Positions 2,250-30,378 of a DNA stretch of 32,000 nucleotides are shown piece after piece. The stretch is from Moraxella nasovis. GTDB lineage: Bacteria > Pseudomonadota > Gammaproteobacteria > Pseudomonadales > Moraxellaceae. The stretch spans positions 1,980,001-2,012,000 of the forward strand of contig NZ_CP089976.1 in assembly GCF_022701215.1 (NCBI RefSeq). The letters run 5' to 3'. Positions within the stretch are counted from its first letter, which is position 1; each line of letters opens with the position of its first letter. The notes beneath the pieces were generated by a model. That model ran no database searches and was not told the origin of the DNA. It was given only the letters and a program-made list of their open reading frames with translations. Made by a program: the position numbers and the translations under genes.

Positions 2250-2265
2250 CGATTATACGCCAAAA

Positions 2266-2904
2266 TTACCCACCAATTAGACCATATCTCATCGCCAAAT
2301 GCGTAAGCTTAACATCGCTATCTACGCCTAATTTCTCAAAAATACGATAACGGTATGTATTGACTGTTTTGACACTAACGAACAGTTTATCAGCGATTTG
2401 TTGGGCACTTTGGCAGTTTACCACCATCATTGCCACTTGACGTTCTCTTTGTGATAGAGCATCAAAAGGGGATTGATTTGTCTCACCAAGCACCGCTGCT
2501 GCAAGCTCAGAGGCGACGTCATGGCTAAAGTAGCGATTCCCTGAGTGGAGTTTTTTAATCGCCAAAACCATCTCATCAAGTGGCGTTCCTTTTGTGATAT
2601 AGCCGTTCACGCCTGCCTTTAGTAGCATAGAGGGGTAGGGTTGGGCAGATAGGCTTGATACCGCAAGAATTTTAATGCTGTCATCTATTTGTTTGATTTT
2701 TTTAGTAGCATCTACGCCGTTCATGCTTGGCATATTGACATCTAATAAAACCACGTCAGGGCGGTGTGTACGCACCTTACTGACTGCTACATCGCCATCA
2801 TTTGCTTGAGCGACCACTTCGATATCATGGTCATCATCTAGCATTCGGACAATACCCATACGCACCAAATCATGATCATCTGCCACCAAAACTTTAATCG
2901 TCAT
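2266..2904 (-). CDS. gacA: two-component response regulator, NarL/FixJ family, GacA/UvrY-like
   Basis: It has a receiver domain (VLVADDHDLVR...DVVLLDVNMP) and a LuxR-type HTH (LSQRERQV...KTVNTYRYRIFEKLGV..DVKLTHLAMRYGL). It is collinear with UvrY/GacA. Confidence 0.85.
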   Translation of the reverse strand: MTIKVLVADDHDLVRMGIVRMLDDDHDIEVVAQANDGDVAVSKVRTHRPDVVLLDVNMPSMNGVDATKKIKQIDDSIKILAVSSLSAQPYPSMLLKAGVNGYITKGTPLDEMVLAIKKLHSGNRYFSHDVASELAAAVLGETNQSPFDALSQRERQVAMMVVNCQSAQQIADKLFVSVKTVNTYRYRIFEKLGVDSDVKLTHLAMRYGLIGG

Positions 2905-3112
2905 ACCATTCCTTTTGTCTTAATTGCATTTGATTTTATATGCTACTGGGTGATTTTGCAAATAAATTTAGCAAAAAGTAATACAGTGGCAAGATTGGGG
3001 TCACAACCGCACTACACTTGGCATCTTTTTGTGATTTTTTGTATTAGGATTTGGTGCTTGTTGGTGATTTATGTTAAACTTAATAAATTAATCTAACTAA
3101 TAAGGGTGACGC

Positions 3113-4237
3113 ATGAGATCGAATCTAAAAAAATATACGATACAATTAACCATGCTAATGACAGTGGGTGCAGCTTATCAGAATGCTCAAGCTTTCATTG
3201 TGGATAATAGCCACCAAAAGACAGTAACTTTATCACGATCTCAATTTAGCCCATCTCAGTCTAGCTCTACCTATGCTGTGACAGCTACTCCTATTACTGA
3301 AATTAATCAAGTCATTAAAGCTGAACCAACTCAAACGATTACAAGGCACGCCCCTAAAGTAGTTCAGACGATAACAAAGCCCACCTATACACCTGTAACT
3401 ACAACCCCTGTCACTGCACAAGCAAGCTCTCAGTTTAGCAGTAGCTATGCCCAAAATGATAGCTTTGAGAACTTTCCTATAACAACAGAATCATCTTCTG
3501 TGGCAGTCGTTGACCTACAAACTGGCAAGCTGATATACGGTAAAAACATCGATCATCAGCGTTCAATCGCTTCGGTGTCTAAAGTAATGACGGCTATGGT
3601 GATTTTAGATTCTGGTCTTGATATGCGTGAAGAGATTACTTTGATTGCGTCAGACTTAGTTGGGGCAAAAAAAGCAAGTACCAAACTAAAAGCAGGCGAT
3701 AGAATGAGTCGTTCTGAGCTGACATTATTAATGCTTATGAAATCTGAAAATCCTGCTGCCAAGGCTTTAGCACGCACCTACACAGGCGGTTATGATGCCT
3801 TTATTAGGGCTATGAATCAAAAAGCATACAGTCTAGGTATGTATCAAACAAGCTTTGCTGACTCATCTGGGTTAAATCCGAATAATAAGTCATCTGCCAG
3901 CGACTTGGTGAAGATGATGACAGCAGTAAGCAGTCAGCCGCGTTATCAGACAATTCGCAACTTCTCAACTGCACCAAGCTATGATTTTTATATTGCAAAT
4001 GACATCTTAGGCGATCGTGTTCTTAAGTCAAATAACACAAGTCGCCTTGTGCGTGCAGGTGCTTATCCTATCGGCGTGTCAAAGACAGGTTACATTCGTG
4101 AGGCGGGCTATTGCGTCGTCATGGAAACGCACGTTAATAACCGTCCTGCCATTGTTGTACTGCTTGGGGCAAAAGCTTCTAACAGTCGCTGGAATGATGC
4201 CGAGAACATTTTAACTGAGCTTGCCTATCGTAATTGA
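3113..4237 (+). CDS. pbpG: D-alanyl-D-alanine endopeptidase/carboxypeptidase (S11, PBP7/PbpG-like) with a long Thr/Gln/Ser-rich N-terminal linker
   Basis: It has a signal peptide, the SxxK motif (SVSK in SIASVSKVMTAMVILD) and KTG (VSKTGYI). About 110 low-complexity residues precede the catalytic domain. Confidence 0.82.
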   Translation: MRSNLKKYTIQLTMLMTVGAAYQNAQAFIVDNSHQKTVTLSRSQFSPSQSSSTYAVTATPITEINQVIKAEPTQTITRHAPKVVQTITKPTYTPVTTTPVTAQASSQFSSSYAQNDSFENFPITTESSSVAVVDLQTGKLIYGKNIDHQRSIASVSKVMTAMVILDSGLDMREEITLIASDLVGAKKASTKLKAGDRMSRSELTLLMLMKSENPAAKALARTYTGGYDAFIRAMNQKAYSLGMYQTSFADSSGLNPNNKSSASDLVKMMTAVSSQPRYQTIRNFSTAPSYDFYIANDILGDRVLKSNNTSRLVRAGAYPIGVSKTGYIREAGYCVVMETHVNNRPAIVVLLGAKASNSRWNDAENILTELAYRN

Positions 4238-8663: not shown

Positions 8664-9458
8664 ATGAAGATTATGACAAAAGTAAAAGCAAAGCAGGTCT
8701 TTGACCGAGATTATCCCAATAAAGCCATTAAAACCATCACCTTAGATGACATCGCCAAAGATGTGATGACAGTGTTTGACAAGCCTGATGATGCTGATAT
8801 TGTCGTCAGTGATATTTTGCGGGAAAAACTTATCCCGCCAAATGGTCAAAATAAAGTGTTACTGCATTCTTGCTGTGCTCCTTGTTCAGGAGAAGTTATG
8901 GAAGCTATGCTAGCAAGCGGCGTGGATTTTACCATTTATTTTTATAATCCCAACATTCACCCTAAAAAAGAGTACGAAATTCGCAAAAACGAAAATATTG
9001 CTTTTGCCAAAAAACACGGTATTCCTTTTGTGGACGCTGATTATGATATGGATAACTGGTTTGAGCGTGCAAAAGGCATGGAAAATGACCCTGAGCGTGG
9101 CAGACGCTGCACCATGTGTTTTGATATGCGGTTTGAGCGGACAGCGTTATATGCCCATGAGCATGGATTTCCTGTGATTACCAGCTCGTTGGGGATTTCT
9201 CGTTGGAAAAACATGGCACAGATTAATGATTGCGGGGTGCGTGCTGCCAGTCCTTATGATGATGTGGTGTACTGGGAGTATAACTGGCGTAAAGGCGGTG
9301 GGAGTTCTCGCATGATTGAAATTAGTAAGCGTGAGCATTTTTATCAGCAAGAATACTGTGGCTGTGCTTACTCTATGCGTGATAGCAATAACTACCGCCG
9401 AAGTGTGGGGCGTGAGCCGATTAAAATTGGCGTCAAATATTATGGTGATGAAGAATAA
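8664..9458 (+). CDS. queH: epoxyqueuosine reductase QueH (DUF208 family)
   Basis: It carries the conserved Cys clusters [18 protein letters not shown] and QEYCGCAYS typical of QueH. Confidence 0.82.
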
Positions 9459-9569: not shown

Positions 9570-10007
9570 ATGTTTCAATTACATCCAACACTTGCTAAAG
9601 ATACGTTTTTGGTAGGTGATTTTCCGTTATCTACTGTGCGTTTGATGAACGACTGCCAGTTTCCTTGGCTAATTTTGGTGCCACGTGTATCAGGCGTTAA
9701 AGAAATTTATGAGCTGTCGCACGTTGATCAAGTGCAGTTTTTGCGTGAATCAAGCTGGGTATCTAGTCAGATGGCGAAGATTTTTGGTGCAGATAAGATG
9801 AATGTTGCTGCACTTGGCAATCAAGTGTCTCAGCTGCATTTTCATCACATCGTCCGCTATCAAAACGACGCTAAATGGCCAAATCCTGTATGGGGCTCGC
9901 CTGCTATTCCCTATACCGCAGAAGTATTACAGCATATGCAACAGACACTGATGATAACCTTACGTGGTCACCACGAAATGCCTTTTGATTGGAAGATGAG
10001 TGTTTAG
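9570..10007 (+). CDS. HIT (histidine triad) family protein
   Basis: It has the histidine triad QLHFHHIVRY and the length typical of the family. An AAGAGA SD lies upstream. Confidence 0.82.
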   Translation: MFQLHPTLAKDTFLVGDFPLSTVRLMNDCQFPWLILVPRVSGVKEIYELSHVDQVQFLRESSWVSSQMAKIFGADKMNVAALGNQVSQLHFHHIVRYQNDAKWPNPVWGSPAIPYTAEVLQHMQQTLMITLRGHHEMPFDWKMSV

Positions 10008-10174
10008 AGATTAAGGCAGGATTATAGTTGGAAGCTGTTGAGATTTATATCATCAAGATTTGCGTCAATCTGCCCTACTAAATAGGTGGTAATTTCTGTT
10101 TCTTGTGGGGCAACTTGCACATTATCCGATGATAGCCAAGTGTTAATCCATGGTATTGGGTTAGATTTAGTAGG

Positions 10175-10489
10175 ATGTTCTATGGTAGTAAGTGGGAACT
10201 AAATCCCACAACTGCTTTTTATGATTGGCTGTATATCAATGCACTAAACCAAAACAAACAGTACCATCATGAGCTGTTAAGCTACCAAGCATTTACTGAC
10301 ATTGAATTCAACCCTGAAAAATCCATTAACTGCCAAGCCTATTCTGTGGCGATGTTTGTTGCCTTAGCAAAGAATGATATGCTCGGTGTATTAAAAGATA
10401 AAGAAGCATTTTTAGGTTTGTATCAAAAATACAAGATAGATAACACAACCAAATACCATAAAGAATTAAAACAGACAAGCCTACTATAA
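10175..10489 (+). CDS. hypothetical protein, possibly the 3' fragment of a longer gene
   Basis: The 104-codon ORF has plausible composition ([32 protein letters not shown]) but no SD. It starts abruptly at the island edge. I cannot assign a family. Confidence 0.4.
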
Positions 10490-10493
10490 ACCA

Positions 10494-10522
10494 AATAAAC
10501 CAAGCATATCACTTGGTTTATT
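10494..10522. terminator. bidirectional stem-loop between convergent genes
   Basis: AATAAACCAAG (10494-10504) pairs with CTTGGTTTATT (10512-10522) in an 11-bp stem flanked by A/T runs. Confidence 0.6.
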
Positions 10523-10880
10523 TTAATGTATTAAGGGTAGGTAGTCTAAACGGTGGGTGATAATCTAAATCTACAAGGACGATATAATCATCATAGCGTT
10601 GGTAATGTAACACATATTTACTGGTACAATCACCATACTCACCTACATACTCAGGTATGCCGATGTGGTAATGCCATAGATGATGTTGTTGTGCAAATCT
10701 GACATCATCAAGCCAAGTATATTTATGTCTAGGTACATTGTCTGATGACTTATTTCGTCCTATCAAACCTACCAATCCATACGCTTCAATATGCTTAACA
10801 AAAGTAGCAATCTTGGTTAGGTCATCATCACTTAACTTATCTAAGATATTTAAAAAGTGATTGGTATAGCTTACTTTCAT
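10518..10880 (-). CDS. putative type II toxin (RelE/ParE-superfamily-like, family unassigned)
   Basis: The ATG at 10880 overlaps the antitoxin stop (ATGA). The product is 120 aa with a C-terminal KYVLHYQRYDDYIVLVDLDYH strand pattern and a LWHYHIG motif. Its position lies downstream of an RHH antitoxin. Confidence 0.5.
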   Translation of the reverse strand: MKVSYTNHFLNILDKLSDDDLTKIATFVKHIEAYGLVGLIGRNKSSDNVPRHKYTWLDDVRFAQQHHLWHYHIGIPEYVGEYGDCTSKYVLHYQRYDDYIVLVDLDYHPPFRLPTLNTLK

Positions 10881-11107
10881 CGTGAACGTACCCAAGCAAC
10901 AAATTCTGTATTAGAATTAAACTTTGGTGCTTCTACAATACCACTGTTGATAGAAGCAAGAATACGTTCTTTATTAAAAGGGAAATCTTCCATATCACGC
11001 AACAACACATACTCTGCATATTCTTGTATGCTTAGGTCATGTGCTTTGGCTTGATGTTCAAAAGCACCTTGTAATTCATCAGGGATACTTACCATAAACT
11101 GTAACAT
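10877..11107 (-). CDS. ribbon-helix-helix (CopG/MetJ-like) antitoxin
   Basis: A strong AAGGAG SD precedes the start. The N-terminal MVSIPDELQGAFEHQAKAHDLSIQEYAEYVL is a typical RHH. A 4-nt ATGA overlap couples it to the downstream toxin. Confidence 0.65.
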   Translation of the reverse strand: MLQFMVSIPDELQGAFEHQAKAHDLSIQEYAEYVLLRDMEDFPFNKERILASINSGIVEAPKFNSNTEFVAWVRSR

Positions 11108-11128
11108 ATCAGCTCCTTAATTATTATC

Positions 11129-11160
11129 TTAGTATAACCCAAATTTAGTATAACCCAAAT
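11129..11160. promoter_or_regulatory. perfect 2 x 16-bp direct repeat (TTAGTATAACCCAAAT); likely TA operator overlapping the promoter
   Basis: The two copies are 11129-11144 and 11145-11160, lying 22-53 nt upstream of the antitoxin ATG. On the minus strand each copy contains TATACT. Confidence 0.55.
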
Positions 11161-11554
11161 CAAAACCAAGTAATAATAACTAATTATTATATTAAATATA
11201 AAACCAATAGTATAAGGTTATAAAAACCACATGAGATAAAAGAATAAAAGATATTAAAAATAAACACTTATTATATTATTTAATATTTAACCGTAACACA
11301 TAAACCATAATAACACTTCACTCATTCGCTATCGCTCATGGCTGGTTTGACGCAAGCTAACGGAATGTAAGGTGGTGTAAGTTGTGTGATGATGATATAG
11401 TAAATTTATATAATATATGATAATACAGGGGGTATTTGATAGATTAGGTCATCTAGATGGGTAGTAGGGTGTGAAAAAACAGCTCGTAGTATAGATTACT
11501 TAAAATACATTTGTCAATGCTATTTTTGTATTAATGTTATTATGCTATTGTAAC

Positions 11555-11590
11555 AAAGACATGATTGCTGTAATCATGTCTTTTTTATTG
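11555..11590 (+). terminator. intrinsic-terminator-like hairpin immediately upstream of the giant ORF
   Basis: AAAGACATGATT (11555-11566) pairs with AATCATGTCTTT (11572-11583) in a 12-bp stem, followed by TTTTATT. There is no upstream plus-strand gene for it to terminate. Confidence 0.55.
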
Positions 11591-11619
11591 TCTAAACAAA
11601 ATATGCTGTAACCCTTAGG

Positions 11620-14600
11620 GTGTACGGAGCAGGTATTGCAAATACGGTGAATACAGTACAAGATGGCTTGGTTGATGCTATTAGAACAGAGTATGAAAAC
11701 ATCAGTAAGCTTGTTCGTAAGAATGACTACACACAAGCAACTGAAAGAGCCTTAAAGCTACAAGAGCAGTTAAGAGTACTATTAGCAGACCCTAATTTTA
11801 ATCTACCTAATGCTGACCAGCTACTATCAAAACAAACGTGGCTTGATGCACAACCTTCTACAGGCTGGTATGCTAACCCTAAAAATAAATATAGAGTATT
11901 TAACCTAGAGCAACAGCTTAGAGCTAATACGTCATGGGTGTTAAAAGAAATTTTTGATACAGCACGTATGTCTTATATGGGTGAGATGATACAGACTCAA
12001 CACGATAATACAGCATTAGCAGAAAGAGCTACTAATATCTATATACGTGTCTTTGATGAAAAAGTAAAACAAGTAATTGAGCAAAATAAACAACAAGCCA
12101 ACACACCACAGCAAGCTGATGCTATAAACTTAAGCATAGAGCAATACCAACAAATCCAAGAAGAGCTTAAAGCGATATTCCCAAGCATTAAAACCCCGTT
12201 TATTGGTGAAAATGCTTTAGATTGGACAGATAATGGGTATCACCCTGTTAAGAGTGTAGAAACCTTACAAGAAGACCTAAGCAGTGAGCCACTAACTAGA
12301 GATAGCAATGGCAATATAAATTATCATCAGCTATCAGCAAGTATGCGTAAGATGGTGTTTAAGGGTTTAGCAACAACGTCATTCCAAACCCAAAGCGTAG
12401 ATGCTTATGTCACAGCAATCACAAGCTCTGGTGGTGGACACCCTAATAACCACATATCTATGAATAACCACGATAGTAACAGCGGTGGTATTCATTTTGT
12501 TACAGATATGGCTAAAGCCCAAAATAAAGCATTCTTTTATGGTTTAGCTACTTATCATGCTAATGAAGCTACCTTAGATGCCTTTTTGCGAACTATATTA
12601 GGTGCATTAAACACTTATCAAGGTAAGAAACCACCTATAGCATTAGTTGGTTCTTCTACAGGAAATATAGATTCCTTACTTAATCTTGTGAAAACTACCA
12701 AACAACAAGAGCTAGCTAAACTAAAAGGCTTACTAGCTTTACAAAAAATTCAGCAATACGCTACAGAAGGGGGTGAGTACCTTGTTGCAGGTGAAGATAG
12801 AACCTTTGTGATAAAGCAGATTGAAGCTTTAGAAGAACGGTTTGAAGACTACGAAAAACAAGCCAAGCAGATTCACACAGCTTATAAGGCACTAGCTAAA
12901 AAGCAAAATAATGGTGAACAAACAAATAAAGCTGTGACTAAACCTAACTTAAAAGAAAGCTTAACTCTTAGTGAGAGAAATGGTAGTGTTATCAACATCT
13001 GGCACGGCTCTAATGAGAACGCTAATTTATCTAACTTGGCTTTAAGACCATTTACTGCTAAGAATGGTAGAAAATACCAATCTGTAGAACACTTCTACCA
13101 AAGCCATAAAACAGGTAAATTTGATGAAACCATCTATGGAAATGTGGGTTGGTTTAAAGCAGGAACTAAGATAAAAAAAGGGACAGCAAAGACAGAAAAT
13201 GACTTTAATATTAAGCTAATGAAAGCAGGTATTAAAATGTCATTTGAGCAAAACCCAAGAGCATTACGAGAACTATTAGCAACAGGTAATGCTACCTTAA
13301 CGCATACCCAAGAAACAGGTATGTGGAGAGAGATGTTCCCTAAACTTTTAATGGAAGTTAGAGATGAGTTAGGACAAGTAGAGCAACAAGAAAGTACTGA
13401 TAACCTAGTTAAAGAGACTAAAGCATATTTTGATAAATACTTAAAAGGTAAATCGTTCGATACCGTGATTGGTAAAGTTCATGTATTGGGAAGTAGCTGG
13501 CAGAAGAAGTTGAAGCATGGAATAAAAACAGACCACCTAAGAGCTAAGGCAATTCCGTTTATCCCTGATATTCTTACTAAAGGTGTTTATGAAGGTAAGC
13601 AGGATTTGGGGAAAATAAGAAATGATACTTACGTTGCTTTCCACTCTTTTACAAAAGAGTTAGACATCGATGACGAAAAAGTATTCGCAAGATTATTGGT
13701 AGGTGAAAGGGCAAATAATGAGTATAAATTTGTAGCTTATAGTATTTACCCTAAAAAAGAGAACTCCGATATTGGTGATTCTGGAGACTTAGCCAGAGCC
13801 GTATCGGAGTTCGAAGATAGTGTAGCAAACCAAGATGAAGATGTCAAACCAACCCTAACAGGTAAATCTCCTTACTTGGCTAAAGACCAAGCTAAATCTG
13901 ACATAGCTAATAAGTTTATTGGTTTTGGGGCAAAAGGTAGTTCTACTGATGTATATAGACAAGATTGGGGCAATAAAGCCAATACAGGGAGCTATACAAG
14001 TACAGATAAGGTATTTGTATCTATAAATGGTAAACGCCCTAACAGGATAGGTGTAGAAGCATATAAAGCAGAACTGGATTTAGCCATTCAAGCAGGTGCT
14101 GTACTCATTACTGATAAAGCGTATGATAGAAATAGACCCTTTAATGTAGGGGAAAGGGAAGTAGCTGAGTACTTAAATCAAAAAGGGTATGTAGAAACTT
14201 CAGATGGTATTTGGGGTAGGGCATCTAATGAATCTAAAGACGTGAAATACCAAGCTAATAGCTTTGGTGAAAGACCAAACTTAAAAGATGTAGCTGATAT
14301 TGATGTCGTTGAGATAAACGCTAAAGAGCTTGGCTTTAAGCAAACTAAACAATTAGCTGATGAAATTTTAAGACAGCTACAACAAACAGACGCAATATAC
14401 AACCATGATACTGGCTGGAATTTACAGGTAGGTAAAAAAGACCGTAAAAAGATGGGAGATAATAATAATCTATCCCACGCTACTAGCCAAGCGGTACAAG
14501 GTATAAAAGAGCTTGTAAGAAATGCTGTTGTTGCTGAAACTCACCAAGACGTTAAGCATGGTAATGAAAGAGTTACGGCAATACATAGAATGTATGTTCC

Positions 14601-17600
14601 TGCAGACATCAATGGGCAATTACACCGTGTTAAATTGACTATTAAAGATTACAGCTTAAATGATGGTACAAAAAGAAAAAATCTCCATGCTATTGAAGCG
14701 ATAGAGATTGAAAATGCCCTGCTGGGAACTCTGCCACCCGATGCTACCAATGGGGTAATTCAAGGGGTAGCTCAACCAACCACAGGGCATAAACTAAGTA
14801 TAGTTAATCTTTTAAAAGGAGTCAAGCACGATGGAGATGATGGGGTGTTTTTTGATACAGCACCTACAAGACGTCTTGGTTTTAAAGATTTAGAAACAGA
14901 CAAATTACAAGCACAGAATGTAATAGCATCTGACACAGACATTAGAGTAAATAACACACAAGTGCTAAAGCGTCTGTTAATATCTAAATTTGATAAAGAA
15001 GATACCACACATCTGTATGCTCGTCAGCATTTACGAAACGTACTTGCTCTAGTTCAACCAATCAACCCTACGGTTGAAATTAAAGTAACAGCAGATGGGG
15101 ATTATCAAGGTGTGTATGATATATCAGATAATACCATTACGATTAGTGAAACGTACGCAAATACAGCAAGCTATAAAAACTTAGTGGGTGTGTTAACTCA
15201 TGAGTTAGGACACGCCACAACCATGCAACGCTTAAGAGATATTCGTGCAGGTAAAGTGACTTCACCTAAAGTACTACAAGCTTTAAACCATCTTATCAAT
15301 AAACGAAACACCATCTTAACTGAACTAAATAAAGCAGGTGTAGCTTTAAGTGATAAACAAGCTTATATCCTAGAAGCAGGGAAGTATAGCGATGAAAATC
15401 AGTATGGGATAGAAGAGCTTATCAGTCATGTCTTAGGTAACGATGTAGAAGCTTTACGTTTATTAACTGAGTATGGGGGTAATAAGACAGACTTATCCAA
15501 AAATACCAAAGGGATTAAAGCCTTTATAAATGCAGTTAAAAACTTATTTACACCAAACTTGGATAATAAAAAAGCTCAAGGTAAAAAGCAGTTTGAAGCT
15601 CAGTATTCAGACTTTATGGGTGCATTAATAGAGCTTACCCAACCACTAGATGACATATCAGATAACACAGACCTTACACCAAATGGTTTAGATTTATTAG
15701 ATGAGTTAACAACTCAAGATGTCACAACCCAAGTGATTGCTAACCATAAACTAGCTGCTCATGCTTATTTTAATGAAGCAGATGAAGTTTACGCTCACTA
15801 TCAAGATGTGGCTCATAAATCCACGATTGAAGTGCTTAAACAACTTCCTAAAGGTAACATTAGTGAGACGCATAACGCTAAGCTAGATGGTTTAATAGAT
15901 ACACTACTTTCCAGCTTTTATAATAAACACCACAATGCTAGTGCCTTATTGGCTAACCAAGATAAACTAGATAAAGCGATAATAAGTGATGATAACCAAG
16001 TGCTTAGTCATGGCTTTAACTTAAGTGCAAAAGAACTGGCAAGTTATCAAGCAGTAAAAGCTGTGTTAGATAGCTTTGGGAATGCACAGCGTCATGAAGC
16101 CTATCAAGAGCTACGGCATATCTATGAAGAAATGCTAGATAACAAGGCAGGGTATCAGCAATTTATAAACTCTGATAACCCAACCAAAGATGATATTGAG
16201 CTGGCTAAAAAACAGTATGATTTTTTATTTCCTAAAAAAGAAACTGACCATACACCAGCACATAGATTGGTTGCACTTAGTTTAACCAGTGAGCAGATGT
16301 ACAATCTGTTAAACCAAAAACGTCAAATATTAAAAAATAAGTCTGATAATCAAAGCTGGTTTGATAAAGCTATGGGGTTATTTAAAACACTATTAGATGT
16401 GCTACTACAAAAAGTGAAAGGGGATAAGTCTAAGCCTATTAATGCACAGATTGATTTTTTGGTAAATAAACTAACAAAATTAGATGAGCATTATAGATTA
16501 CAAAGTCTAAGACGCTCTGATAAGCTATGGGAGTACAGAAAGTTTATTACTGTACCTGCTAATAAAGCGGTGAAAGGGGCACTTGATGTGGGTAAATCAG
16601 TTACTGTGGCTGTATTTCCTAAAACACAGACTTATTTTGATGCTGTGGTAAAAACACCATCACAGATTGCACGAGACATATCAAATGCCATCAATGCGTC
16701 AGATTCGTCTGATAAACCACTAGGCACACTAAGAGAGCTGATGAATGAATATGGTACAACAACCATCATGCAAAAGCTTATGACTCGTATGCTAGCAACA
16801 ACTCAAAGCATAGGACAAGAACGAGAGTTAACACGAGCTTCTACCAAGAGTCAGTTACTGGCATTTTTTAAGGATAAGCCTACAGCAAACCAAGCACAAG
16901 CAATAACTAAGGGGCTATATGAGACAGACGCAAGTAGCTTACTTAATTATCATGATATGGATACCACGCTTGGGTTAATCGTAAATCATAGCTTACGAGA
17001 TGGGCGTATCACAGCGATACGTAATCAGATTACACATAACTTTCAGCTAAACTTAGATGAGATAAATGGGATTATTAAAGCAACAATGGTCGCTGCTCGT
17101 AAAATGTATGATGGGGCAACTTTAGCAGATTATTTCTCAAATCCTGAGTTAATTGCCTTTACTTATAATAAACCAAATAATAAAGAATTAATTGGTTTAA
17201 TTGATGAGCTAACCACGCTTACTGCGTTACGTTATTCACACGATGGTGTATATAAAAAAGCAGATATGAGTGAGCTTATCGCATTAATCCAAAATGATGA
17301 AGATGCCATTCGTCAAGTTTTAAAGCACCATCATACGCATATGACTGCATTTAAAACACAAGAATTTGCATCAAATCCTTTTAGTTTTACCAAAGGCTAT
17401 ACACCTGAGCTATATGATGAGCTAAGAGCGGTAAAAGCTGTAACAGGTGAAGAGCTTCAAGAATACTTAAATAAAGGATGGGCGTTAGAAACACCTGATG
17501 GGATAAAACAAGATGACTTTGATGATACACATACACGCTATTTGGTAACAACAGCAGATGCTGGTAAACCCCATTATCAATCAGGTGTGTTAGAGTTATC

Positions 17601-19152
17601 TGATACCCATGCTAAAGGTACGGTGGTTTATGAAGATTCTATACAAGTTGCTCAGATAGTTAAAAAACAAATCAAAGAGCGAGCTTTACATAATAAAGAA
17701 GTAAGCTGGCAATCTTTTAGTCCTTTTGATGAAGATACAAATCCAAAGGGTAGATTTATTGCATCTTATAATCCAGATGGTTCAGTTGCAAATCTACATT
17801 ATGAGATGGAATCTAAAACAAGAGATAGACTGCTAAACCGTAATTTAAATTTTAGTGACATTATGGGTTCTATGGTAGGTAACACACAAGCCAAACAACC
17901 AATGAGAGAACATCAAAGAGATATTGTGCGTGCATTACATAAAGACTATACAGATGCAATGAAATCACCAGATGCTAATATGTTGGATTTTTTGGTATTA
18001 ACACCTGATTCTTCTGACCCACAAATTGCAGAGCATTACAGATTACTACCTTATAGTTTTAAAGATGAAGCCAATAAGTTATTTGGATATAACCGTCCTA
18101 TTTATATTCGTAAAGATATTTATAATATGGTACTAGGCTATAGACGAGTAAGTTTAGCTAATGTGTGGGATAAACCAGAAAACGAGCTTAATGAGTTTGA
18201 AAAACGATTTAAAAATCTGGTTACATCTAAATGGGGTGATAAAGCACGTGGTAGAGTGTTATGGACAGGTAAACATTGGGGTGCTTTAGTTAAACAAGTA
18301 CAAAAATCTTGGGTAGTACGTAATCCATCTACATTAAAAGGTAATGTGATTTCTAATGCACTACTGTTAAGCTTAAAAGGTGTAAATCCAAAAGAAGTGA
18401 TAACAGGTCATGTACGAGTATGGAAACATGGTAAAGAGTATCGTGACCTTGTCACTAAGGTAGCTCGTATTAAGGTACAACTAGAAGCAGGTACAGCTAA
18501 TCAAGACCATCTACTAAGACAGCTAACAAACCTAACAGCAAGCATTAATTCACATTATTTACATAAGTTTATGCAAGCTGGTTTGATGAGTACGATTGTA
18601 GAAGACATTTCAGATGATAAAGGTCAATACACGTCAGCTTTAACGCGTAAGTTAGATAAATTTTATAATAATTTACCTAAGCCTTTAAAAGCTACGTTAG
18701 ATTTTGTGTTTATTACTGAAGATTCTAAGTTGTATAAAGCTCTTTATGATGCAACGCAATTTAGTGACTTTGCTGCTAAAGTGTTATTAATGGAGCAATT
18801 AATGAAAGAAGGACATAGTTTTAATTATGCTTATAGTGAAGCTCAAGATGCCTTTATTGCTTTTGATGTGCCTACCAGTAAGTATATGGATTATGCAAAT
18901 CGTATTGGTTTATTTATGTTTACTAAGTGGGCAATACGCTTTCAACGAGTGCTTGAAAAGCAATTTAAGAAAACACCAGCATCTGTCATAATGCAACACC
19001 TGTTAATAGAGAAGTTTACTGATGAAGCAGGTATTGCTAATCCTTGGGTAGGATTTGATATTATCTCTGGGAATACTGGTTTAGAAGATGGTGCATTTGG
19101 TTTATTAGATGCCTATTTACATACGCCTGTGATAGACCATATCGTTGATTAG
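11620..19152 (+). CDS. giant multidomain (polyvalent-type) protein, 2510 codons: N-terminal unknown region, NADAR domain, nuclease-like modules, HEXXH zincin, ~1200-aa helical C-terminal region
   Basis: It is an uninterrupted 7.5-kb frame. The NADAR alignment to YbiA covers residues ~456-584. HELGH lies at residues 1194-1198 (nt 15199-15213). The start is uncertain: GTG with no SD, and the first ATG in frame is codon 117. Confidence 0.85.
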   Translation: MYGAGIANTVNTVQDGLVDAIRTEYENISKLVRKNDYTQATERALKLQEQLRVLLADPNFNLPNADQLLSKQTWLDAQPSTGWYANPKNKYRVFNLEQQLRANTSWVLKEIFDTARMSYMGEMIQTQHDNTALAERATNIYIRVFDEKVKQVIEQNKQQANTPQQADAINLSIEQYQQIQEELKAIFPSIKTPFIGENALDWTDNGYHPVKSVETLQEDLSSEPLTRDSNGNINYHQLSASMRKMVFKGLATTSFQTQSVDAYVTAITSSGGGHPNNHISMNNHDSNSGGIHFVTDMAKAQNKAFFYGLATYHANEATLDAFLRTILGALNTYQGKKPPIALVGSSTGNIDSLLNLVKTTKQQELAKLKGLLALQKIQQYATEGGEYLVAGEDRTFVIKQIEALEERFEDYEKQAKQIHTAYKALAKKQNNGEQTNKAVTKPNLKESLTLSERNGSVINIWHGSNENANLSNLALRPFTAKNGRKYQSVEHFYQSHKTGKFDETIYGNVGWFKAGTKIKKGTAKTENDFNIKLMKAGIKMSFEQNPRALRELLATGNATLTHTQETGMWREMFPKLLMEVRDELGQVEQQESTDNLVKETKAYFDKYLKGKSFDTVIGKVHVLGSSWQKKLKHGIKTDHLRAKAIPFIPDILTKGVYEGKQDLGKIRNDTYVAFHSFTKELDIDDEKVFARLLVGERANNEYKFVAYSIYPKKENSDIGDSGDLARAVSEFEDSVANQDEDVKPTLTGKSPYLAKDQAKSDIANKFIGFGAKGSSTDVYRQDWGNKANTGSYTSTDKVFVSINGKRPNRIGVEAYKAELDLAIQAGAVLITDKAYDRNRPFNVGEREVAEYLNQKGYVETSDGIWGRASNESKDVKYQANSFGERPNLKDVADIDVVEINAKELGFKQTKQLADEILRQLQQTDAIYNHDTGWNLQVGKKDRKKMGDNNNLSHATSQAVQGIKELVRNAVVAETHQDVKHGNERVTAIHRMYVPADINGQLHRVKLTIKDYSLNDGTKRKNLHAIEAIEIENALLGTLPPDATNGVIQGVAQPTTGHKLSIVNLLKGVKHDGDDGVFFDTAPTRRLGFKDLETDKLQAQNVIASDTDIRVNNTQVLKRLLISKFDKEDTTHLYARQHLRNVLALVQPINPTVEIKVTADGDYQGVYDISDNTITISETYANTASYKNLVGVLTHELGHATTMQRLRDIRAGKVTSPKVLQALNHLINKRNTILTELNKAGVALSDKQAYILEAGKYSDENQYGIEELISHVLGNDVEALRLLTEYGGNKTDLSKNTKGIKAFINAVKNLFTPNLDNKKAQGKKQFEAQYSDFMGALIELTQPLDDISDNTDLTPNGLDLLDELTTQDVTTQVIANHKLAAHAYFNEADEVYAHYQDVAHKSTIEVLKQLPKGNISETHNAKLDGLIDTLLSSFYNKHHNASALLANQDKLDKAIISDDNQVLSHGFNLSAKELASYQAVKAVLDSFGNAQRHEAYQELRHIYEEMLDNKAGYQQFINSDNPTKDDIELAKKQYDFLFPKKETDHTPAHRLVALSLTSEQMYNLLNQKRQILKNKSDNQSWFDKAMGLFKTLLDVLLQKVKGDKSKPINAQIDFLVNKLTKLDEHYRLQSLRRSDKLWEYRKFITVPANKAVKGALDVGKSVTVAVFPKTQTYFDAVVKTPSQIARDISNAINASDSSDKPLGTLRELMNEYGTTTIMQKLMTRMLATTQSIGQERELTRASTKSQLLAFFKDKPTANQAQAITKGLYETDASSLLNYHDMDTTLGLIVNHSLRDGRITAIRNQITHNFQLNLDEINGIIKATMVAARKMYDGATLADYFSNPELIAFTYNKPNNKELIGLIDELTTLTALRYSHDGVYKKADMSELIALIQNDEDAIRQVLKHHHTHMTAFKTQEFASNPFSFTKGYTPELYDELRAVKAVTGEELQEYLNKGWALETPDGIKQDDFDDTHTRYLVTTADAGKPHYQSGVLELSDTHAKGTVVYEDSIQVAQIVKKQIKERALHNKEVSWQSFSPFDEDTNPKGRFIASYNPDGSVANLHYEMESKTRDRLLNRNLNFSDIMGSMVGNTQAKQPMREHQRDIVRALHKDYTDAMKSPDANMLDFLVLTPDSSDPQIAEHYRLLPYSFKDEANKLFGYNRPIYIRKDIYNMVLGYRRVSLANVWDKPENELNEFEKRFKNLVTSKWGDKARGRVLWTGKHWGALVKQVQKSWVVRNPSTLKGNVISNALLLSLKGVNPKEVITGHVRVWKHGKEYRDLVTKVARIKVQLEAGTANQDHLLRQLTNLTASINSHYLHKFMQAGLMSTIVEDISDDKGQYTSALTRKLDKFYNNLPKPLKATLDFVFITEDSKLYKALYDATQFSDFAAKVLLMEQLMKEGHSFNYAYSEAQDAFIAFDVPTSKYMDYANRIGLFMFTKWAIRFQRVLEKQFKKTPASVIMQHLLIEKFTDEAGIANPWVGFDIISGNTGLEDGAFGLLDAYLHTPVIDHIVD

Positions 19153-19180
19153 GGAAAAACCATAATAAAATAAATTAAAT

Positions 19181-19210
19181 AAACCCACTTAATTGGTGGG
19201 TTTATTTATT
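19181..19210. terminator. bidirectional terminator between the giant ORF and the convergent small ORF
   Basis: AAACCCAC (19181-19188) pairs with GTGGGTTT (19196-19203), with A-rich sequence upstream and T-rich sequence downstream. Confidence 0.65.
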
Positions 19211-19231
19211 ATATGGTTTACAAATTATGGG

Positions 19232-19567
19232 TTAGTTAGCACTAAAAACTTTATCTAAGTTTACCCCATGAACTACTAACCATGCTTGAGCAGGGTAGCT
19301 ATTGACTGTTAAACGTCCTACTTCTACTTGGTGGAATTCCAGCTCATTTTCTAAACAGTAGTGACGTAAACTATGCCATGAGTAAGATTGTCCTGTAATA
19401 TTACTAACTTCAGAAGTAGATGCAGAAGGTACTTTAAACTTAAGGGGTTCAGCTGGTTTATCTGATTCATCAGCTAGTACTTCGTTAGTTAGATAATCTA
19501 TCATAATTTGAATCGCATTTCGTACTTCATCTTTTGAATAAATGTGGTTTAGCGTGGTCATTGACAT
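19232..19567 (-). CDS. hypothetical protein co-transcribed with the integrase (possible DNA-binding/recombination directionality factor)
   Basis: An AAGGAG SD precedes the start, which lies 28 nt downstream of the integrase stop. The 111-aa product has an acidic linker. No recognisable motif is present. Confidence 0.55.
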   Translation of the reverse strand: MSMTTLNHIYSKDEVRNAIQIMIDYLTNEVLADESDKPAEPLKFKVPSASTSEVSNITGQSYSWHSLRHYCLENELEFHQVEVGRLTVNSYPAQAWLVVHGVNLDKVFSAN

Positions 19568-19595
19568 AATAACTCCTTAGTTTTGTTGATTAAAA

Positions 19596-20501
19596 TTAAA
19601 GTTTAGTTGCTTGTTGTTTTAGACTATTCAAATAATTAAACCACAAGCGATAAGCATTGGTTTGTTCAGGTAAGTAATGGTAATGGTCGTAAACACTACG
19701 AATACCTGTGACTTGATGCCCTAGCATCATCTCAGCAACTGTAAGTGACGTAAAACTACTAAATCTAGTTCTTGCTGTGCGTCTTAGGTCGTGAATACAC
19801 CAAGGCTTCATCACATAGTGATACTGCTGATTTAGGTGTTGTCTGATACGTAGGGGTATTAAATTAGCCCAAGTGCGGGCTATAGGCTCATTAGCAGATA
19901 TTTTCTTAATTTGACGATTGCAAAGCAGTAATTCATTACCACTTAAAGCAATTAACTCATCAATAACTGCCAAAGATTCGTCCAGTATGGGACGAAAGAT
20001 AGGCGTGTGGGTACGATACCCCATCTTATGGTTAGACTGTGGTACAGTCCAAACCATCTGGATAAAATCAAAATCAGCCTTACGAGCTAATCTTAACTCT
20101 CCATTACGACAACCGTACAACAAAAGAAACTGAATGGCTAGACAGTTACGTTTAAATAAAGCACCATCTTGTAGTGCTTTAAATAACCATATCAATTCTT
20201 CATCATTCAGTACTCTTGACTTTTGTGGTTTTACAATCCCAAAATCAGCATAAGCGGTTAATTCTTTTAAGGGATTAGTAGTGATATAGCCGTGAGTTAC
20301 GCACCATTTCATTACCATACGAGCATAGATTAAAATTCTGTTGGCTATGCTAGGGGATTTTTGTTTAACTTCATCAATCAAACTGACCCAAAAACTCGTG
20401 CTAAGCTTATCTACAGGTATATCACCATATTTTTTTGAGGGGGGTTGATGTTGGATAAAAATATGGCATGGAGGCGGTAGGTGAAGTGGTTTGATGGGCA
20501 T
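19596..20501 (-). CDS. tyrosine recombinase, P4-type integrase lacking the N-terminal arm-binding domain (likely 5'-truncated)
   Basis: The catalytic signature is retained (GCRNGELRLAR, HDLRRTARTR, LGHQVTGIRSVYDHY). The product is only 301 aa, against about 400 for the family. An in-frame stop lies 4 codons upstream of the ATG. Confidence 0.8.
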   Translation of the reverse strand: MPIKPLHLPPPCHIFIQHQPPSKKYGDIPVDKLSTSFWVSLIDEVKQKSPSIANRILIYARMVMKWCVTHGYITTNPLKELTAYADFGIVKPQKSRVLNDEELIWLFKALQDGALFKRNCLAIQFLLLYGCRNGELRLARKADFDFIQMVWTVPQSNHKMGYRTHTPIFRPILDESLAVIDELIALSGNELLLCNRQIKKISANEPIARTWANLIPLRIRQHLNQQYHYVMKPWCIHDLRRTARTRFSSFTSLTVAEMMLGHQVTGIRSVYDHYHYLPEQTNAYRLWFNYLNSLKQQATKL

Positions 20502-20544
20502 CGTGATGATCGATTATTGTTCATGATGGGTTAAGCTGATGGTT

Positions 20545-27382: not shown

Positions 27383-27420
27383 AATGAACGCGCTAAGATA
27401 AACTAGTGCGTTCATTTTGG
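27383..27420 (+). terminator. terminator-like hairpin directly after leuC, inside the leu cluster
   Basis: AATGAACGC (27383-27391) pairs with GCGTTCATT (27408-27416), followed by TTGG. The T-run is partly within the stem. Confidence 0.45.
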
Positions 27421-27462
27421 AGAAAATTATGCTGTTATCAATTTTTGAGCAACATTAATCAA

Positions 27463-27615
27463 ATGGTTCAGCATTTGGATAATGCCGTCAAAATACAATT
27501 GATTGAGCAGTTACAAAAAGATATTGCCAATAAACCACCTGATGATTTATCAAAATTCACCCCAAGAAATGATTTGGTTGTGGGTAACTTTGATGATTTG
27601 GGAAATATCAGTTAG
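27463..27615 (+). CDS. short antitoxin-like ORF upstream of the PIN pseudogene (possibly itself decayed)
   Basis: The 50-codon ORF ends 16 nt before the PIN start and has a C-terminal acidic GNFDDLGNIS tail. There is no SD. A separate SD+ATG at 27429 opens only a 9-codon frame, suggesting frameshift decay. Confidence 0.3.
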   Translation: MVQHLDNAVKIQLIEQLQKDIANKPPDDLSKFTPRNDLVVGNFDDLGNIS

Positions 27616-27631
27616 GAAAAGGAGTTAAGTC

Positions 27632-28011
27632 TTGAATTTCCCCAATAGTGTATGTCTTGATACTCATGCGGTTGTTTGGCTTGAAAATGGCGAAATATAT
27701 AGATTTGGTAAACGGTCGCTAGATTATTTGGCAAATTGTCGTTTGCTGATACAGTTATTTAAAATATTGCTAATAAAGCAAATTTTAATATTTACCAAAA
27801 ATCTTGGTTTGATAAAAATCTTGGTTTGATAAAAATCTTGGTTTGATAAAAATCTTGGTTTGATAAAAATCTTGGTTTGATAAAAATCTTGGTTTGATGC
27901 TGTTAATATCGCCTTGCATTGCAATTTTACTAAAGACGCATTTGACGCTTGATTATCACACATGCCATGATAGATAATAGCATGCTAATCAGTACAGATG
28001 AAAAAAATTAA
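27632..28011 (+). pseudogene. vapC-like PIN-domain toxin gene, disrupted by a tandem array and a 1-nt frameshift
   Basis: The N-terminal CLDTHAVVWLENGE (PIN LDTHxxxW signature) follows an AAGGAG SD. The C-terminal KDAFD / RLIITHAMIDNSMLISTDEKN matches the PIN DPFDRLIIAQA...T.D end if one nt is restored near 27946-27948. Stops occur inside the 17-bp repeats. Confidence 0.6.
27797..27898. repeat. perfect tandem repeat, 6 x 17 bp (AAAAATCTTGGTTTGAT)
   Basis: Six identical head-to-tail units were counted directly: 27797-27813, 27814-27830, 27831-27847, 27848-27864, 27865-27881 and 27882-27898. Confidence 0.97.
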
Positions 28012-28085
28012 CTAAGCATTATACCAATTATGTTTGGTAAAATTTCAGCAATTAAATTTTGTAAAACAATCACAAGGAAAATCCC

Positions 28086-28616
28086 ATGAATCTAACTGCC
28101 AACACCTACCTAGATGTCCGTAATCCCACCCAGCCCACAGGCGAGATGATATTGACCTGTGCCGATATTGCCAATGAAAGCACATTATCTAATGACTATG
28201 TCGCCAATATTTGGGGCTATACAGGGGGTAATATCAGCCCAGAATTGATGTGGCAAAATGCCCCCAAAGACACCAAAAGTTTTGTCATCACGCTATTTGA
28301 CCCTGACGCACCCACAGGCTCTGGCTTTTGGCATTGGAATGTGTTTAATATTCCTGCTGATTGGACGGCATTACCCAAAAATAAATCCAATGATTTTGGT
28401 GATGGTATTATTGAGCTTAAAAATGACGCAGGACTAACTGGCTTTATTGGGGCATTTCCACCCAAAGGCGATAAACCACACCGCTATATTTTTACGCTAT
28501 ACGCCCTAAATGAAAAACTGGATTTAAACAATAGCATTAGCCCTGCGGTATTGGGATTTAATTTAAATGGTAAAGTTTTGGCGACAGCTAAATTGACGGC
28601 TTATTATCATTGGTAA
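28086..28616 (+). CDS. YbhB/YbcL-family PEBP (Raf kinase inhibitor-like) protein
   Basis: It has the DPDAPTGSGFWHWNVFNIP and PPKGDKPHRYIFTLYAL signatures of bacterial PEBP. An AAGGA SD precedes the start. Confidence 0.88.
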   Translation: MNLTANTYLDVRNPTQPTGEMILTCADIANESTLSNDYVANIWGYTGGNISPELMWQNAPKDTKSFVITLFDPDAPTGSGFWHWNVFNIPADWTALPKNKSNDFGDGIIELKNDAGLTGFIGAFPPKGDKPHRYIFTLYALNEKLDLNNSISPAVLGFNLNGKVLATAKLTAYYHW

Positions 28617-28626
28617 TTATTGAACA

Positions 28627-29004: not shown

Positions 29005-29067
29005 TTATTTGTTAAAATTAAGGCAATCTATTTGGATTATCTTATTTTTTTGAAATTAAGGTGTAAA

Positions 29068-30358: not shown

Positions 30359-30378
30359 TTAAATCAAAAGGTAATCCT

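Follow-up and report, generated by a model that had tools for sequence, protein, structure and literature searches.

The low-GC island between a HIT gene and an rlpA-like gene in a 32,000-nucleotide stretch of Moraxella nasovis DNA (the window, by which the whole stretch analysed is meant) is very probably all that repeated deletion has left of a temperate N4-like (Schitoviridae-type) prophage, now cryptic; prophages of this kind are common in Moraxella. We read this prophage as recently decayed and see no evidence of its domestication. It would have inserted between the converging HIT and rlpA-like genes, after which at least three deletions would have taken most of it, leaving a remnant that is unable to excise, to replicate or to build particles; the order of these deletions, and the descent of all pieces from one element, are what we infer.

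The truncation explains a 2510-codon orphan polyvalent open reading frame without virion genes, an anomalous object since N4-like RNA polymerases have been reported only alongside virion late genes (Iyer et al., 2017, PMC5512222). Furthermore, the island offers a worked example of the decay of a temperate N4-like prophage in Moraxella, with three deletion joints (J1 to J3) and every fragment still open.

Borders and contents of the island

The GC content of the island (10022-20500) is 0.356, as compared to 0.421 for the genome (z = -3.97), and only 0.3% of all 10.5-kb intervals of the 2.03-Mb genome are equally low. The GC profile falls from about 0.42 to 0.33-0.37 across approximately 10,000-20,500 and is uniform throughout the island, which bears out the low-GC block between the HIT and rlpA-like genes described in an earlier, sequence-only reading of this DNA. 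The following features were assigned (positions in the window, residues in the giant open reading frame):

10022..10171, minus strand: 3' fragment of an RNR small-subunit (nrdB-like) gene, last 49 codons and stop
10175..10489, plus strand: 3' fragment of a NADAR antitoxin gene, last 102 codons
10493..10523: terminator-like hairpin between the converging NADAR fragment and toxin gene
10518..10880, minus strand: toxin gene, 120 aa, ATG at 10880, predicted RelE/ParE-superfamily fold
10877..11107, minus strand: antitoxin gene, 76 aa, probably ribbon-helix-helix
11129..11160: pair of perfect 16-bp repeats (TTAGTATAACCCAAAT) that abut each other, found by repeat search
11161..11554: AT-rich spacer
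11555..11590, plus strand: intrinsic-terminator-like hairpin, 13-bp stem and T-run
11620..19152, plus strand: 5'-truncated N4-like polyvalent virion RNA polymerase gene (giant open reading frame), 2510 codons, frame opens at 11596
Residues 1-427: rear RNA polymerase domain
Residues 465-564: NADAR
Residues 907-1017: LPD3
Residues 1152-1203: HEXXH zincin
Residues 1460-2455: region homologous to the C-terminal domain of N4 gp50
19170..19214: hairpin at which the giant open reading frame and regulator gene converge
19232..19567, minus strand: small phage regulator, 111 aa, full length, phrog_4936
19596..20501, minus strand: P4-type tyrosine integrase fragment, 301-aa open reading frame, PF00589 and PF22022

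The small open reading frame, toxin-antitoxin pair, spacer, giant open reading frame, 111-aa open reading frame and integrase listed earlier are thus all present, but the RNR small-subunit tail had been missed, and what had passed for an orphan open reading frame at 10175-10489 is the tail of a NADAR antitoxin gene. All fragments, the 7.5-kb giant open reading frame included, are without stops or frameshifts.

Both ends of the island adjoin truncated genes. On the left, phage-derived DNA begins at 10022, 14 bp past the HIT stop. On the right, the ancestral rlpA-like stop lies at 20514-20516 and a frameshift near the 3' end of the gene creates the present stop at 20545; the integrase ATG is therefore 12 nt from host-derived sequence, instead of the 43 previously given. 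No tRNA or tmRNA gene is present in the window, in the roughly 20 kb before it or in the roughly 56 kb after it, and an Rfam scan of the island matched zero families. A direct repeat with one copy at each island end was not found, the left-end 20-mer has no second copy in the window when 3 mismatches are allowed, and megablast of the whole island against phage and plasmid collections gave no match. Terminase, portal and head genes are absent from the island and from elsewhere in the genome, as are other N4-like virion or RNA polymerase II genes from the remaining genome. The absence of att repeats, tRNA, capsid and transfer genes from the island had been correctly noted; the residual att repeats that were to be sought did not appear at the island ends.

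The site in related species

The gene order mfd-HIT-rlpA-pgk is found in 6 other Moraxella species with the island absent, the HIT and rlpA-like genes being convergent neighbours with a gap of about 190-550 bp between their aligned ends. The empty junction that had been proposed as a check exists in these species. The block was horizontally acquired, as had been claimed. The island was not seen in 41 other species of the genus. Within the species, an exact HIT protein look-up and a 27-mer metagenome scan revealed no empty site, and the island ends are hence defined only against other species. A 16-nt motif, GTTGRAAGCTGTTGA, lies just past the HIT stop in the genomes G019, G031 and G013. The same motif occurs in the island, as the final codons of the RNR fragment, and it may represent the att core.

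Parent-type prophages in Moraxella

Full-length relatives of the giant protein (4,430-4,893 aa) are encoded by prophages in other species of Moraxella. The G013 prophage, which is the one relative prophage examined at both ends, is 42.5 kb long, low in GC and bounded by an 88-bp direct repeat; these exact att repeats confirm true integration of such N4-like prophages. It carries genes for an integrase, an RNR small subunit, N4-type RNA polymerase II, DarT and NADAR, and a regulator, together with the late genes for terminase, portal and major head protein and the giant gene, and the G011 prophage encodes DNA polymerase, primase, helicase and SSB.

The integration of N4-like proviruses in Moraxella has been published before: 28 of 40 integrated N4-like proviruses were found in this genus, with SF83-85 as the proposed subfamilies (Zheng et al., 2023, PMC10654107). 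N4-like RNA polymerases fused to metallopeptidase, lysozyme or PBECR1 domains have also been described, the example being a polyvalent protein of a Moraxella prophage, DR90_1081 (Iyer et al., 2017, PMC5512222). The island shares with these proviruses the genus, a giant polymerase with gp50-like C-terminal domain, zincin and LPD3, and the accessory genes for RNR small subunit, NADAR and small regulator in the same order and orientation; RNR (minus strand), NADAR (plus) and the giant gene (plus) are likewise arranged as in G013. In contrast to them, it consists of fragments only and is devoid of att repeats, of replication genes and of genes for capsid, portal, terminase and RNA polymerase II, its integrase is of a different (P4) type and itself truncated, and the identity of its proteins to the sampled relatives is only 34-78%.

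The truncated virion RNA polymerase gene

Judged from its alignments, the giant open reading frame is the 3' part, 7.5 kb in length, of a gene of about 13-15 kb for a polyvalent virion RNA polymerase. Its residues 1-427 correspond to positions 1580-1954 of 3406 in the PHROG profile of virion RNA polymerase (E 8e-20), its residues 1460-2455 align with residues 2440-3444 of N4 gp50 (E 9e-25), demonstrating that a counterpart of the gp50 C-terminal domain, about residues 2100-3500 of that protein, is present, and phrog_2206 matches it with E 2e-198. By profile position, the first ~46% of the polymerase gene has been lost. A four-sequence polymerase-domain profile did not reach the N4 mini-vRNAP in the PDB, and it was the PHROG profile that placed the region. 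The zincin fusion scores as SprT-like at 25.7 bits, for a cut-off of 25.6, and its HELGH is located at about residues 1193-1197.

The breakpoint falls within a catalytic motif. The open reading frame opens with V-YGAG, where the relatives have RQGAKEVLIPAGYGAG or KRSAAKSVLVPFNYGAG (motif B, Rx3Kx7YG), so that the motif B tail YGAG stands at residues 2-5, with motif C (HDS) following about 280 residues later, at residue 284. A complete T7-like polymerase domain is absent: G011, G012 and G013 all have the motifs T/DxxGR and A and the Arg and Lys of motif B, none of which is left here. The counterpart of residue 2 in the 4430-aa G013 protein is residue 2140. A natural short variant was considered and rejected, as the frame starts within a conserved motif and homology to the longer relatives reaches residue 2. 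The deletion at J2 (about 11596-11622) would have run from past the NADAR and toxin-antitoxin region into motif B of the polymerase, taking with it the genes for terminase, portal and capsid as well as about 6.4 kb from the polymerase gene itself.

The open reading frame is most probably a silent pseudogene, still unbroken by mutation, since it has no credible start and lies behind a terminator. The terminator hairpin (11555-11590) stops about 30 nt upstream of the GTG, no promoter-like site occurs between the two, and neither a Shine-Dalgarno sequence nor an ATG is present at the start. No virion late-gene neighbourhood of this open reading frame was found in the island or in the whole genome. 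An exact look-up retrieved no record of the giant or integrase products with these start codons, and a single-protein query of IMG/VR found no relative of the giant protein. Its nearest full-length relative is only 34-51% identical, and the direct parent was consequently not found; of the intact parent element that had been suggested as a search target, the type is represented in other Moraxella species. The idea that the element was immobilised by deletion while keeping the giant gene survives in its first half only, the gene being 5'-truncated up to profile position 1580 of 3406.

The RNR and NADAR fragments

Throughout the genus, the RNR small subunits of chromosomes and prophages have C-termini with 77-86% identity to the RNR fragment, including the RNR genes that adjoin the integrase in the G013 and G011 N4-like prophages, and the genome's own nrdB shows 85% DNA identity to it over 123 bp. 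NADAR homology begins at 10178, within 6 bp of the RNR fragment, and marks the deletion joint J1. The 10175-10489 frame matches PF22397 at profile positions 130-211 of 212 (E 1.3e-33). Its identity to the complete NADAR of the G013 prophage (231 aa) is 78% over residues 129-230 of the latter, a protein that comes after a 563-aa DarT-domain protein. The first 128 codons of the antitoxin and the DarT toxin gene are missing from the island, and no DarT remnant was found in it. The deletion at J1 would thus have had one end within the RNR small-subunit gene and the other within the NADAR antitoxin gene; the equivalent interval in G013 spans about 9 kb and holds the N4-type RNA polymerase II genes and DarT. 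With its toxin gene lost, and 60% of its antitoxin gene too, the DarT1-NADAR system cannot work here.

The integrase and the regulator

The integrase retains its catalytic and central domains (PF00589, E 7e-9; PF22022, E 2e-4, which is below the cut-off of that family), and the residues GCRNGEL, HDLRRTAR and LGH...Y can be read from the sequence. It lacks the arm-binding domain PF13356, about 135 N-terminal residues and part of the core-binding region. Of the integrase itself, a 261-aa version is on record. Nearly all of its roughly 100 database homologues are about 400 aa long with PF13356, PF22022 and PF00589; PF13356 occurs in nearly all of the ~400-aa homologues, which upholds the earlier description of a P4-type integrase without its N-terminal domain. 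Homology to full-length relatives begins at about residue 23 (about nt 20435), placing joint J3 at approximately 20436-20513, where the integrase would have lost its 5' end, along with the att site beside it and the terminator in the host intergenic region. A full-length paralogue in the same genome (413 aa, 43% identical, G000:881378) has no tRNA beside it.

The regulator matches phrog_4936 (E 8e-13; annotated in PHROGs as a transcriptional regulator) and is 41% and 38% identical, aligned over its whole length, to genes of the G013 and G012 N4-like prophages. It and the toxin-antitoxin pair are the only parts of the island that look intact.

The toxin-antitoxin pair

On the strength of its structural model, the toxin is assigned to the RelE/ParE-superfamily fold, in an unnamed family without a Pfam model. 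The AlphaFold model has a pLDDT of 88.5, and its best 50 PDB fold matches are all RelE, YoeB, YafQ, HigB or ParE toxins or a homologue (H. pylori HP0894), with Foldseek probabilities up to 0.99, target-normalised TM-scores of 0.44-0.72 and weak E-values of 0.02-1.4. By sequence, neither toxin nor antitoxin matched the PDB, the pair has no match to any Pfam, NCBIfam or PDB toxin, and a Pfam domain occurs in none of 175 toxin homologues. The antitoxin shows a weak match to FitA-like ribbon-helix-helix proteins (E 0.15) and, as read from its sequence, a putative strand-helix-helix pattern at the N-terminus. The antitoxin stop and toxin start overlap in ATGA, and the TTAGTATAACCCAAAT repeat pair, 21 bp upstream of the antitoxin start, is probably the operator of the toxin-antitoxin promoter. 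We take the pair to be probably an ordinary type II module with a labile antitoxin, an autoregulated promoter and an mRNA-cleaving toxin, which may have slowed loss of the surrounding stretch.

The same two-gene cassette stands alone amid housekeeping genes in M. equi and M. bovis. The pair has no counterpart in the sampled N4-like prophages, and the spacer at 11161-11554 has no homologue in the sampled Moraxella N4-like prophages, elsewhere in the genome or in Rfam.

Alternative explanations

The previous interpretation as a domesticated conflict or defence island, in which the host keeps the truncated polyvalent protein and the toxin-antitoxin pair against phages or other elements, would possibly act by keeping incoming N4-like virion polymerases from being packaged or ejected or, alternatively, by reversal of DNA ADP-ribosylation. 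A 2510-codon frame open in 36%-GC DNA, recognisable NADAR, LPD3 and zincin modules, and an intact-looking toxin-antitoxin pair and regulator would fit such a role, and the absence of stops over 7.5 kb could also reflect selection on the giant open reading frame rather than the youth of a prophage remnant. However, this frame starts inside a catalytic motif, behind a terminator and devoid of recognisable start signals, and the RNR and NADAR tails, certainly useless at 49 and 102 codons, are equally stop-free, so that its openness points to recent deletion and not to selection. The island is also confined to this one of the species surveyed in the genus, and PADLOC models gave no meaningful match to its products, the sole hit (16.5 bits) relating the antitoxin to a restriction-enzyme model. 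We therefore consider domestication improbable and do not retain it. Even less probable is a specific form of it, in which the polymerase fragment is expressed by read-through or from an internal start and kept by the host as a decoy for N4-like phages or as a NADAR eraser; if true, half a virion protein would have been domesticated. Such a decoy would poison the assembly or ejection of incoming N4-like phages, and the eraser would act on guanine ADP-ribosylation.

A composite origin deserves more weight, although we hold it to be the less likely account: an N4-like remnant (the RNR, NADAR and polymerase fragments, perhaps also the regulator), a separate remnant of a P4-type-integrase island and a free-moving toxin-antitoxin cassette would have met at one hot spot. 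The integrase does not match those adjoining the giant gene in the sampled relatives (E <= 1e-20; no tblastx match either), its nearest homologues, from a variety of Proteobacteria, do not exceed 43% identity, and the solitary occurrence of the cassette in M. equi and M. bovis agrees with this account. As pair and spacer are without counterpart in the sampled prophages, part of the island may come from other insertions, and the distance to the nearest full-length giant relative likewise weighs against a single prophage remnant. On the other hand, the circular maps of G013 and G011 place the integrase module between the giant gene and the RNR gene, and joining the island ends gives the same adjacency (giant gene, regulator, integrase, then RNR), which fits one phage with a swapped integrase module and an attP located where the integrase 5' end faces the 3' end of the RNR gene. 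The regulator adjoining the integrase is of phage type, and the uniform GC also speaks against separate sources. Finally, a still-mobile satellite or mini-element, using a helper N4-like phage for excision and packaging, could draw on the retained integrase catalytic domain, on the regulator and on the C-terminal domain by which the virion polymerase is targeted to the capsid, but it is hardly credible for an element with truncated genes at both ends, no att repeats and an integrase without its arm-binding domain and part of its core-binding region, in a genome from which a helper phage is absent.

Relation to known systems

A single decayed N4-like prophage, the reading that we prefer, can be compared with coliphage N4, which is itself strictly lytic. 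Like N4 gp50 (3500 aa; PDB 9pnq, 11gp), the giant open reading frame has the C-terminal domain and, motif C included, the rear portion of a T7-like polymerase domain. It differs in having neither the front of that domain nor the N-terminal domain, and in an extra NADAR and LPD3 between the polymerase and C-terminal domains. As a remnant, the island resembles the cryptic prophages of E. coli K-12 (e14, Rac, Qin, CP4-57), in which deletion has likewise left phage genes truncated while a residual integrase and a toxin-antitoxin module survive; their parents were lambdoid or P4-like, whereas that of the island would be an N4-type podovirus.

Two leads extend beyond the island. The dedicated NADAR antitoxin family of the DarT1-NADAR anti-phage system is represented here by 82 C-terminal profile positions, while the related G013 prophage holds the complete DarT and NADAR pair; N4-like prophages thus bear DarT1-NADAR pairs, and their injected polymerase has a NADAR domain of its own. 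Like RelBE and ParDE modules, the toxin-antitoxin pair consists of two small genes that overlap, the antitoxin gene preceding that of a toxin with a RelE/ParE fold; it too has tandem repeats resembling an operator and the nature of a mobile two-gene cassette. Its toxin differs in being about 30 residues longer than RelE or YoeB, and would represent an unnamed RelE-fold family that is widespread in Moraxella, Neisseria, Acinetobacter and Psychrobacter.

An accessory island at an otherwise empty site

The window lies at G000:C1:1,980,001-2,012,000 of the complete 2.03-Mb genome of Moraxella nasovis (G000), and the GC profile along it drops from about 0.42 to 0.33-0.37 between about 10,000 and 20,500. 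The island has a GC of 0.356 where the genome has 0.421 (z = -3.97), and just 0.3% of 10.5-kb windows reach so low a value, which bears out the compositional shift described in the sequence-only reading, all of whose ORFs were found again. The same reading had reported neither a tRNA nor att sites, and this holds: searches found no tRNA or tmRNA in the window or nearby and no direct repeats bridging both island ends. An Rfam scan of the sequence matched no family.

The pgk gene was found in 41 further Moraxella species, and its flanks were fetched from 20 of these. In six, the order mfd, HIT, rlpA-like and pgk is found, with the HIT and rlpA-like genes converging and their aligned ends approximately 190-550 bp apart, and the spacer contains a terminator hairpin and none of the island genes. 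Because the site is empty in these six relatives, the island is accessory; the refuting case set by the earlier reading, a gene order kept as core in all relatives, does not hold. The RlpA-like protein ends in ...ISLAYN(E/D) in all six. In the window this ancestral ending is legible only out of frame, as ISLTHHEQ* with its stop at 20514-20516, so the gene has a late frameshift, about ten codons ahead of the ancestral stop, that produces the stop at 20545. Sequence of host origin therefore starts again by about 20514, leaving 12 nt to the ATG of the integrase, and this replaces the gap of 43 bp previously given between the integrase and the rlpA-like gene.

On the other side of the HIT gene, queH (8664-9458) lies between mfd and HIT in this genome only; in the six syntenic relatives HIT directly follows mfd, and queH is sited elsewhere in about half of the genus (e.g., G013:C3:1710415). 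Its placement looks like a local rearrangement beside the island.

Left-end fragments and parent-type prophages

Two gene fragments occupy the left end:

10022-10171, minus strand: RNR small-subunit tail, last 49 residues and stop, 14 bp past the HIT stop
10178-10489, plus strand: DarT1-associated NADAR antitoxin, last 102 codons, at most 6 bp from the RNR fragment

The RNR tail shares 77-86% identity with the C-termini of nrdB products from throughout the genus, and its matches include the RNR genes adjoining the integrase in the N4-like prophages of two other Moraxella genomes, G013 and G011. Compared with the genome's own nrdB (window 10060-10160 vs G000:C1:1912632-1912781), DNA identity is about 94% over the first 96 bp or so and 85% across 123 bp, which suggests that the phage acquired its copy from a Moraxella nrdB or that the two recombined. 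The NADAR fragment covers positions 130-211 of the 212 in Pfam PF22397 and shares 78% identity with the full-length NADAR (231 aa) encoded in the G013 prophage, where a 563-aa DarT-domain protein precedes it.

In G013, a 42.5-kb low-GC block lies between 88-bp direct repeats that duplicate the 3' end of a host gene. It begins with the integrase, RNR small subunit, ATPase and two-subunit N4-type RNA polymerase II, continues with DarT and NADAR, a small regulator, terminase, portal and major head protein, and ends with the giant gene (4,430 aa) followed by two small ones. This apparently intact prophage (G013:C3:1081200-1123843; L046, L033-L035) has its att repeat where a host gene for a 359-aa protein ends (3'), and its DarT and NADAR genes form a complete pair. 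G011 (Moraxella sp. ZJ142) further carries DNA polymerase, primase, exonuclease, helicase and SSB genes. Two of its contigs (C1:2018388-2036975 and C3:1-18588; L036-L040) share 18.6 kb at 99.995% identity, and on contig C3 the phage also has a gene for an RlpA-like (DPBB) protein, with 56% identity to the window's host rlpA-like gene. The shared block stops 136 bp short of the phage integrase gene, on its upstream side, in the interval separating it from the giant gene; this end probably marks the attP crossover point.

The giant ORF

Over its C-terminal 1000 residues the giant ORF aligns to gp50, the virion RNA polymerase of coliphage N4 (residues 2440-3444; E 9e-25). In the 3406-position PHROG profile for this polymerase, residues 1060-2468 correspond to positions 2004-3365 (E 2e-198) and the first 427 residues to positions 1580-1954 (E 8e-20), so that the ORF starts in the middle of the polymerase domain. 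Homologues in the genus are single ORFs of 4,430-4,893 aa, and residue 2 of the giant ORF aligns to residue 2140 of the G013 protein. At the break point the relatives read RQGAKEVLIPAGYGAG, KRSAAKSVLVPFNYGAG and KRAVAKSVLIPFNYGAG, while the giant ORF begins V-YGAG. The relatives' Rx3Kx7YG stretch is motif B of T7-like polymerases (motif name after Kazmierczak et al., 2002). Motif C (HD) lies about 280 residues past the YGAG start; motifs A and T/DxxGR, which are evident in the relatives, fall upstream of the break. The eight codons that run from the upstream stop (11593-11595) to the GTG resemble nothing in the relatives, no Shine-Dalgarno sequence is present at the start, and the earliest in-frame ATG is codon 117.

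NADAR, LPD3 and an HEXXH zincin sit between the rear of the polymerase and the gp50-like domain. Such modules have been described for N4-type polyvalent proteins, one example being a Moraxella prophage protein, and N4-like polymerases are stated to occur only alongside virion late genes (Iyer et al., PMC5512222). The lack of late genes beside the giant ORF is accounted for by truncation, and no other N4-like virion genes were found in the G000 genome. The RNR and NADAR tails, although useless, are as stop-free as the giant ORF, whose openness is therefore attributed to recent deletion, not selection. The claim that the giant gene had been kept is thus unsupported, since the ORF starts inside motif B, and it is best read as a young pseudogene.

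Toxin-antitoxin cassette, regulator and integrase

After the NADAR fragment, two minus-strand genes overlap as ATGA. The product of the upstream one (76 aa) gives a weak RHH signal; the downstream one encodes a 120-aa protein. The AlphaFold model of the latter (pLDDT 88.5) retrieved only RelE/YoeB/YafQ/HigB/ParE-type toxins among its best 50 PDB matches, and no Pfam domain was found among 175 homologues. This RelE-fold toxin family has no family name; one of its members, from Neisseria gonorrhoeae, carries the label 'phage associated protein'. The same two genes stand isolated among housekeeping genes as a conserved cassette in M. equi and M. bovis, flanked by phosphoglucomutase-family and pyridoxamine-phosphate oxidase genes (L062 10001-10360; L063 and L064 10001-10372). 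Two perfect 16-bp repeats lie 21 bp upstream of the antitoxin start, and beyond them comes a spacer of about 400 bp without homologues in the sampled Moraxella N4-like prophages or in the rest of the genome. A terminator hairpin on the plus strand (11555-11590) closes it.

At the right end, a full-length 111-aa gene (phrog_4936) is 41% and 38% identical to genes of the G013 prophage and of that in a further Moraxella genome, G012, respectively. The integrase ORF retains only the catalytic and central domains; its homologues are at most 43% identical, and nearly all have about 400 aa with PF13356 (arm-binding), PF22022 and PF00589. Homology to a 413-aa paralogue at 881 kb begins at about residue 23 of the integrase ORF, so that approximately 135 integrase residues are missing, in agreement with the N-terminal loss proposed earlier.

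One element or several

The RNR (minus), NADAR (plus) and giant (plus) genes have the order and orientation seen in G013. On the circular map, the prophages of G013 and G011 have their integrase module flanked by the giant and RNR genes, and joining the island ends gives the same adjacency: giant, regulator, integrase, RNR. This fits a single phage whose attP was bordered by the 5' end of the integrase gene and the 3' end of the RNR gene, which would account for the RNR tail abutting HIT and the integrase head abutting rlpA. Against this, the integrase is of a type unlike that of the relatives, and the toxin-antitoxin cassette moves by itself, being found alone in M. equi and M. bovis. Assembly from several insertions has the lower, but still appreciable, probability. 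Just past the HIT stop, three empty-site species (L013/L014/L015) carry the 16-nt motif GTTGRAAGCTGTTGA, the island copy of which encodes the last RNR codons (10027-10046). Coincidence is a very unlikely explanation for a match at this position; the motif may represent an att core or else host sequence that is conserved.

Remaining functions

The element is unable to move or to make particles. Its immobilisation by deletion was rightly recognised in the sequence-only reading, as the integrase is about 135 residues short and no repeats bridge the ends. Domestication is unsupported: no island product matches the PADLOC defence models, and the open giant frame is ascribed to recent deletion. Probably only the regulator and the toxin-antitoxin pair still work. 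The island is an ordinary cryptic prophage of a kind already published, 28 of 40 reported integrated N4-like proviruses being in Moraxella (Zheng et al., 2023, PMC10654107).

A second low-GC stretch (0.33-0.36) lies at 27400-30400, within the leu operon. There, leuC is separated from leuD by a PEBP-family gene and an orphan Imm41 immunity gene, and leuD from leuB by a peptidase S51 gene that is broken into two ORFs (29716-30072 and 30053-30358). In G013 the apparent leuC, leuD and leuB, assigned by ORF sizes (472, 216 and 356 aa), are contiguous.
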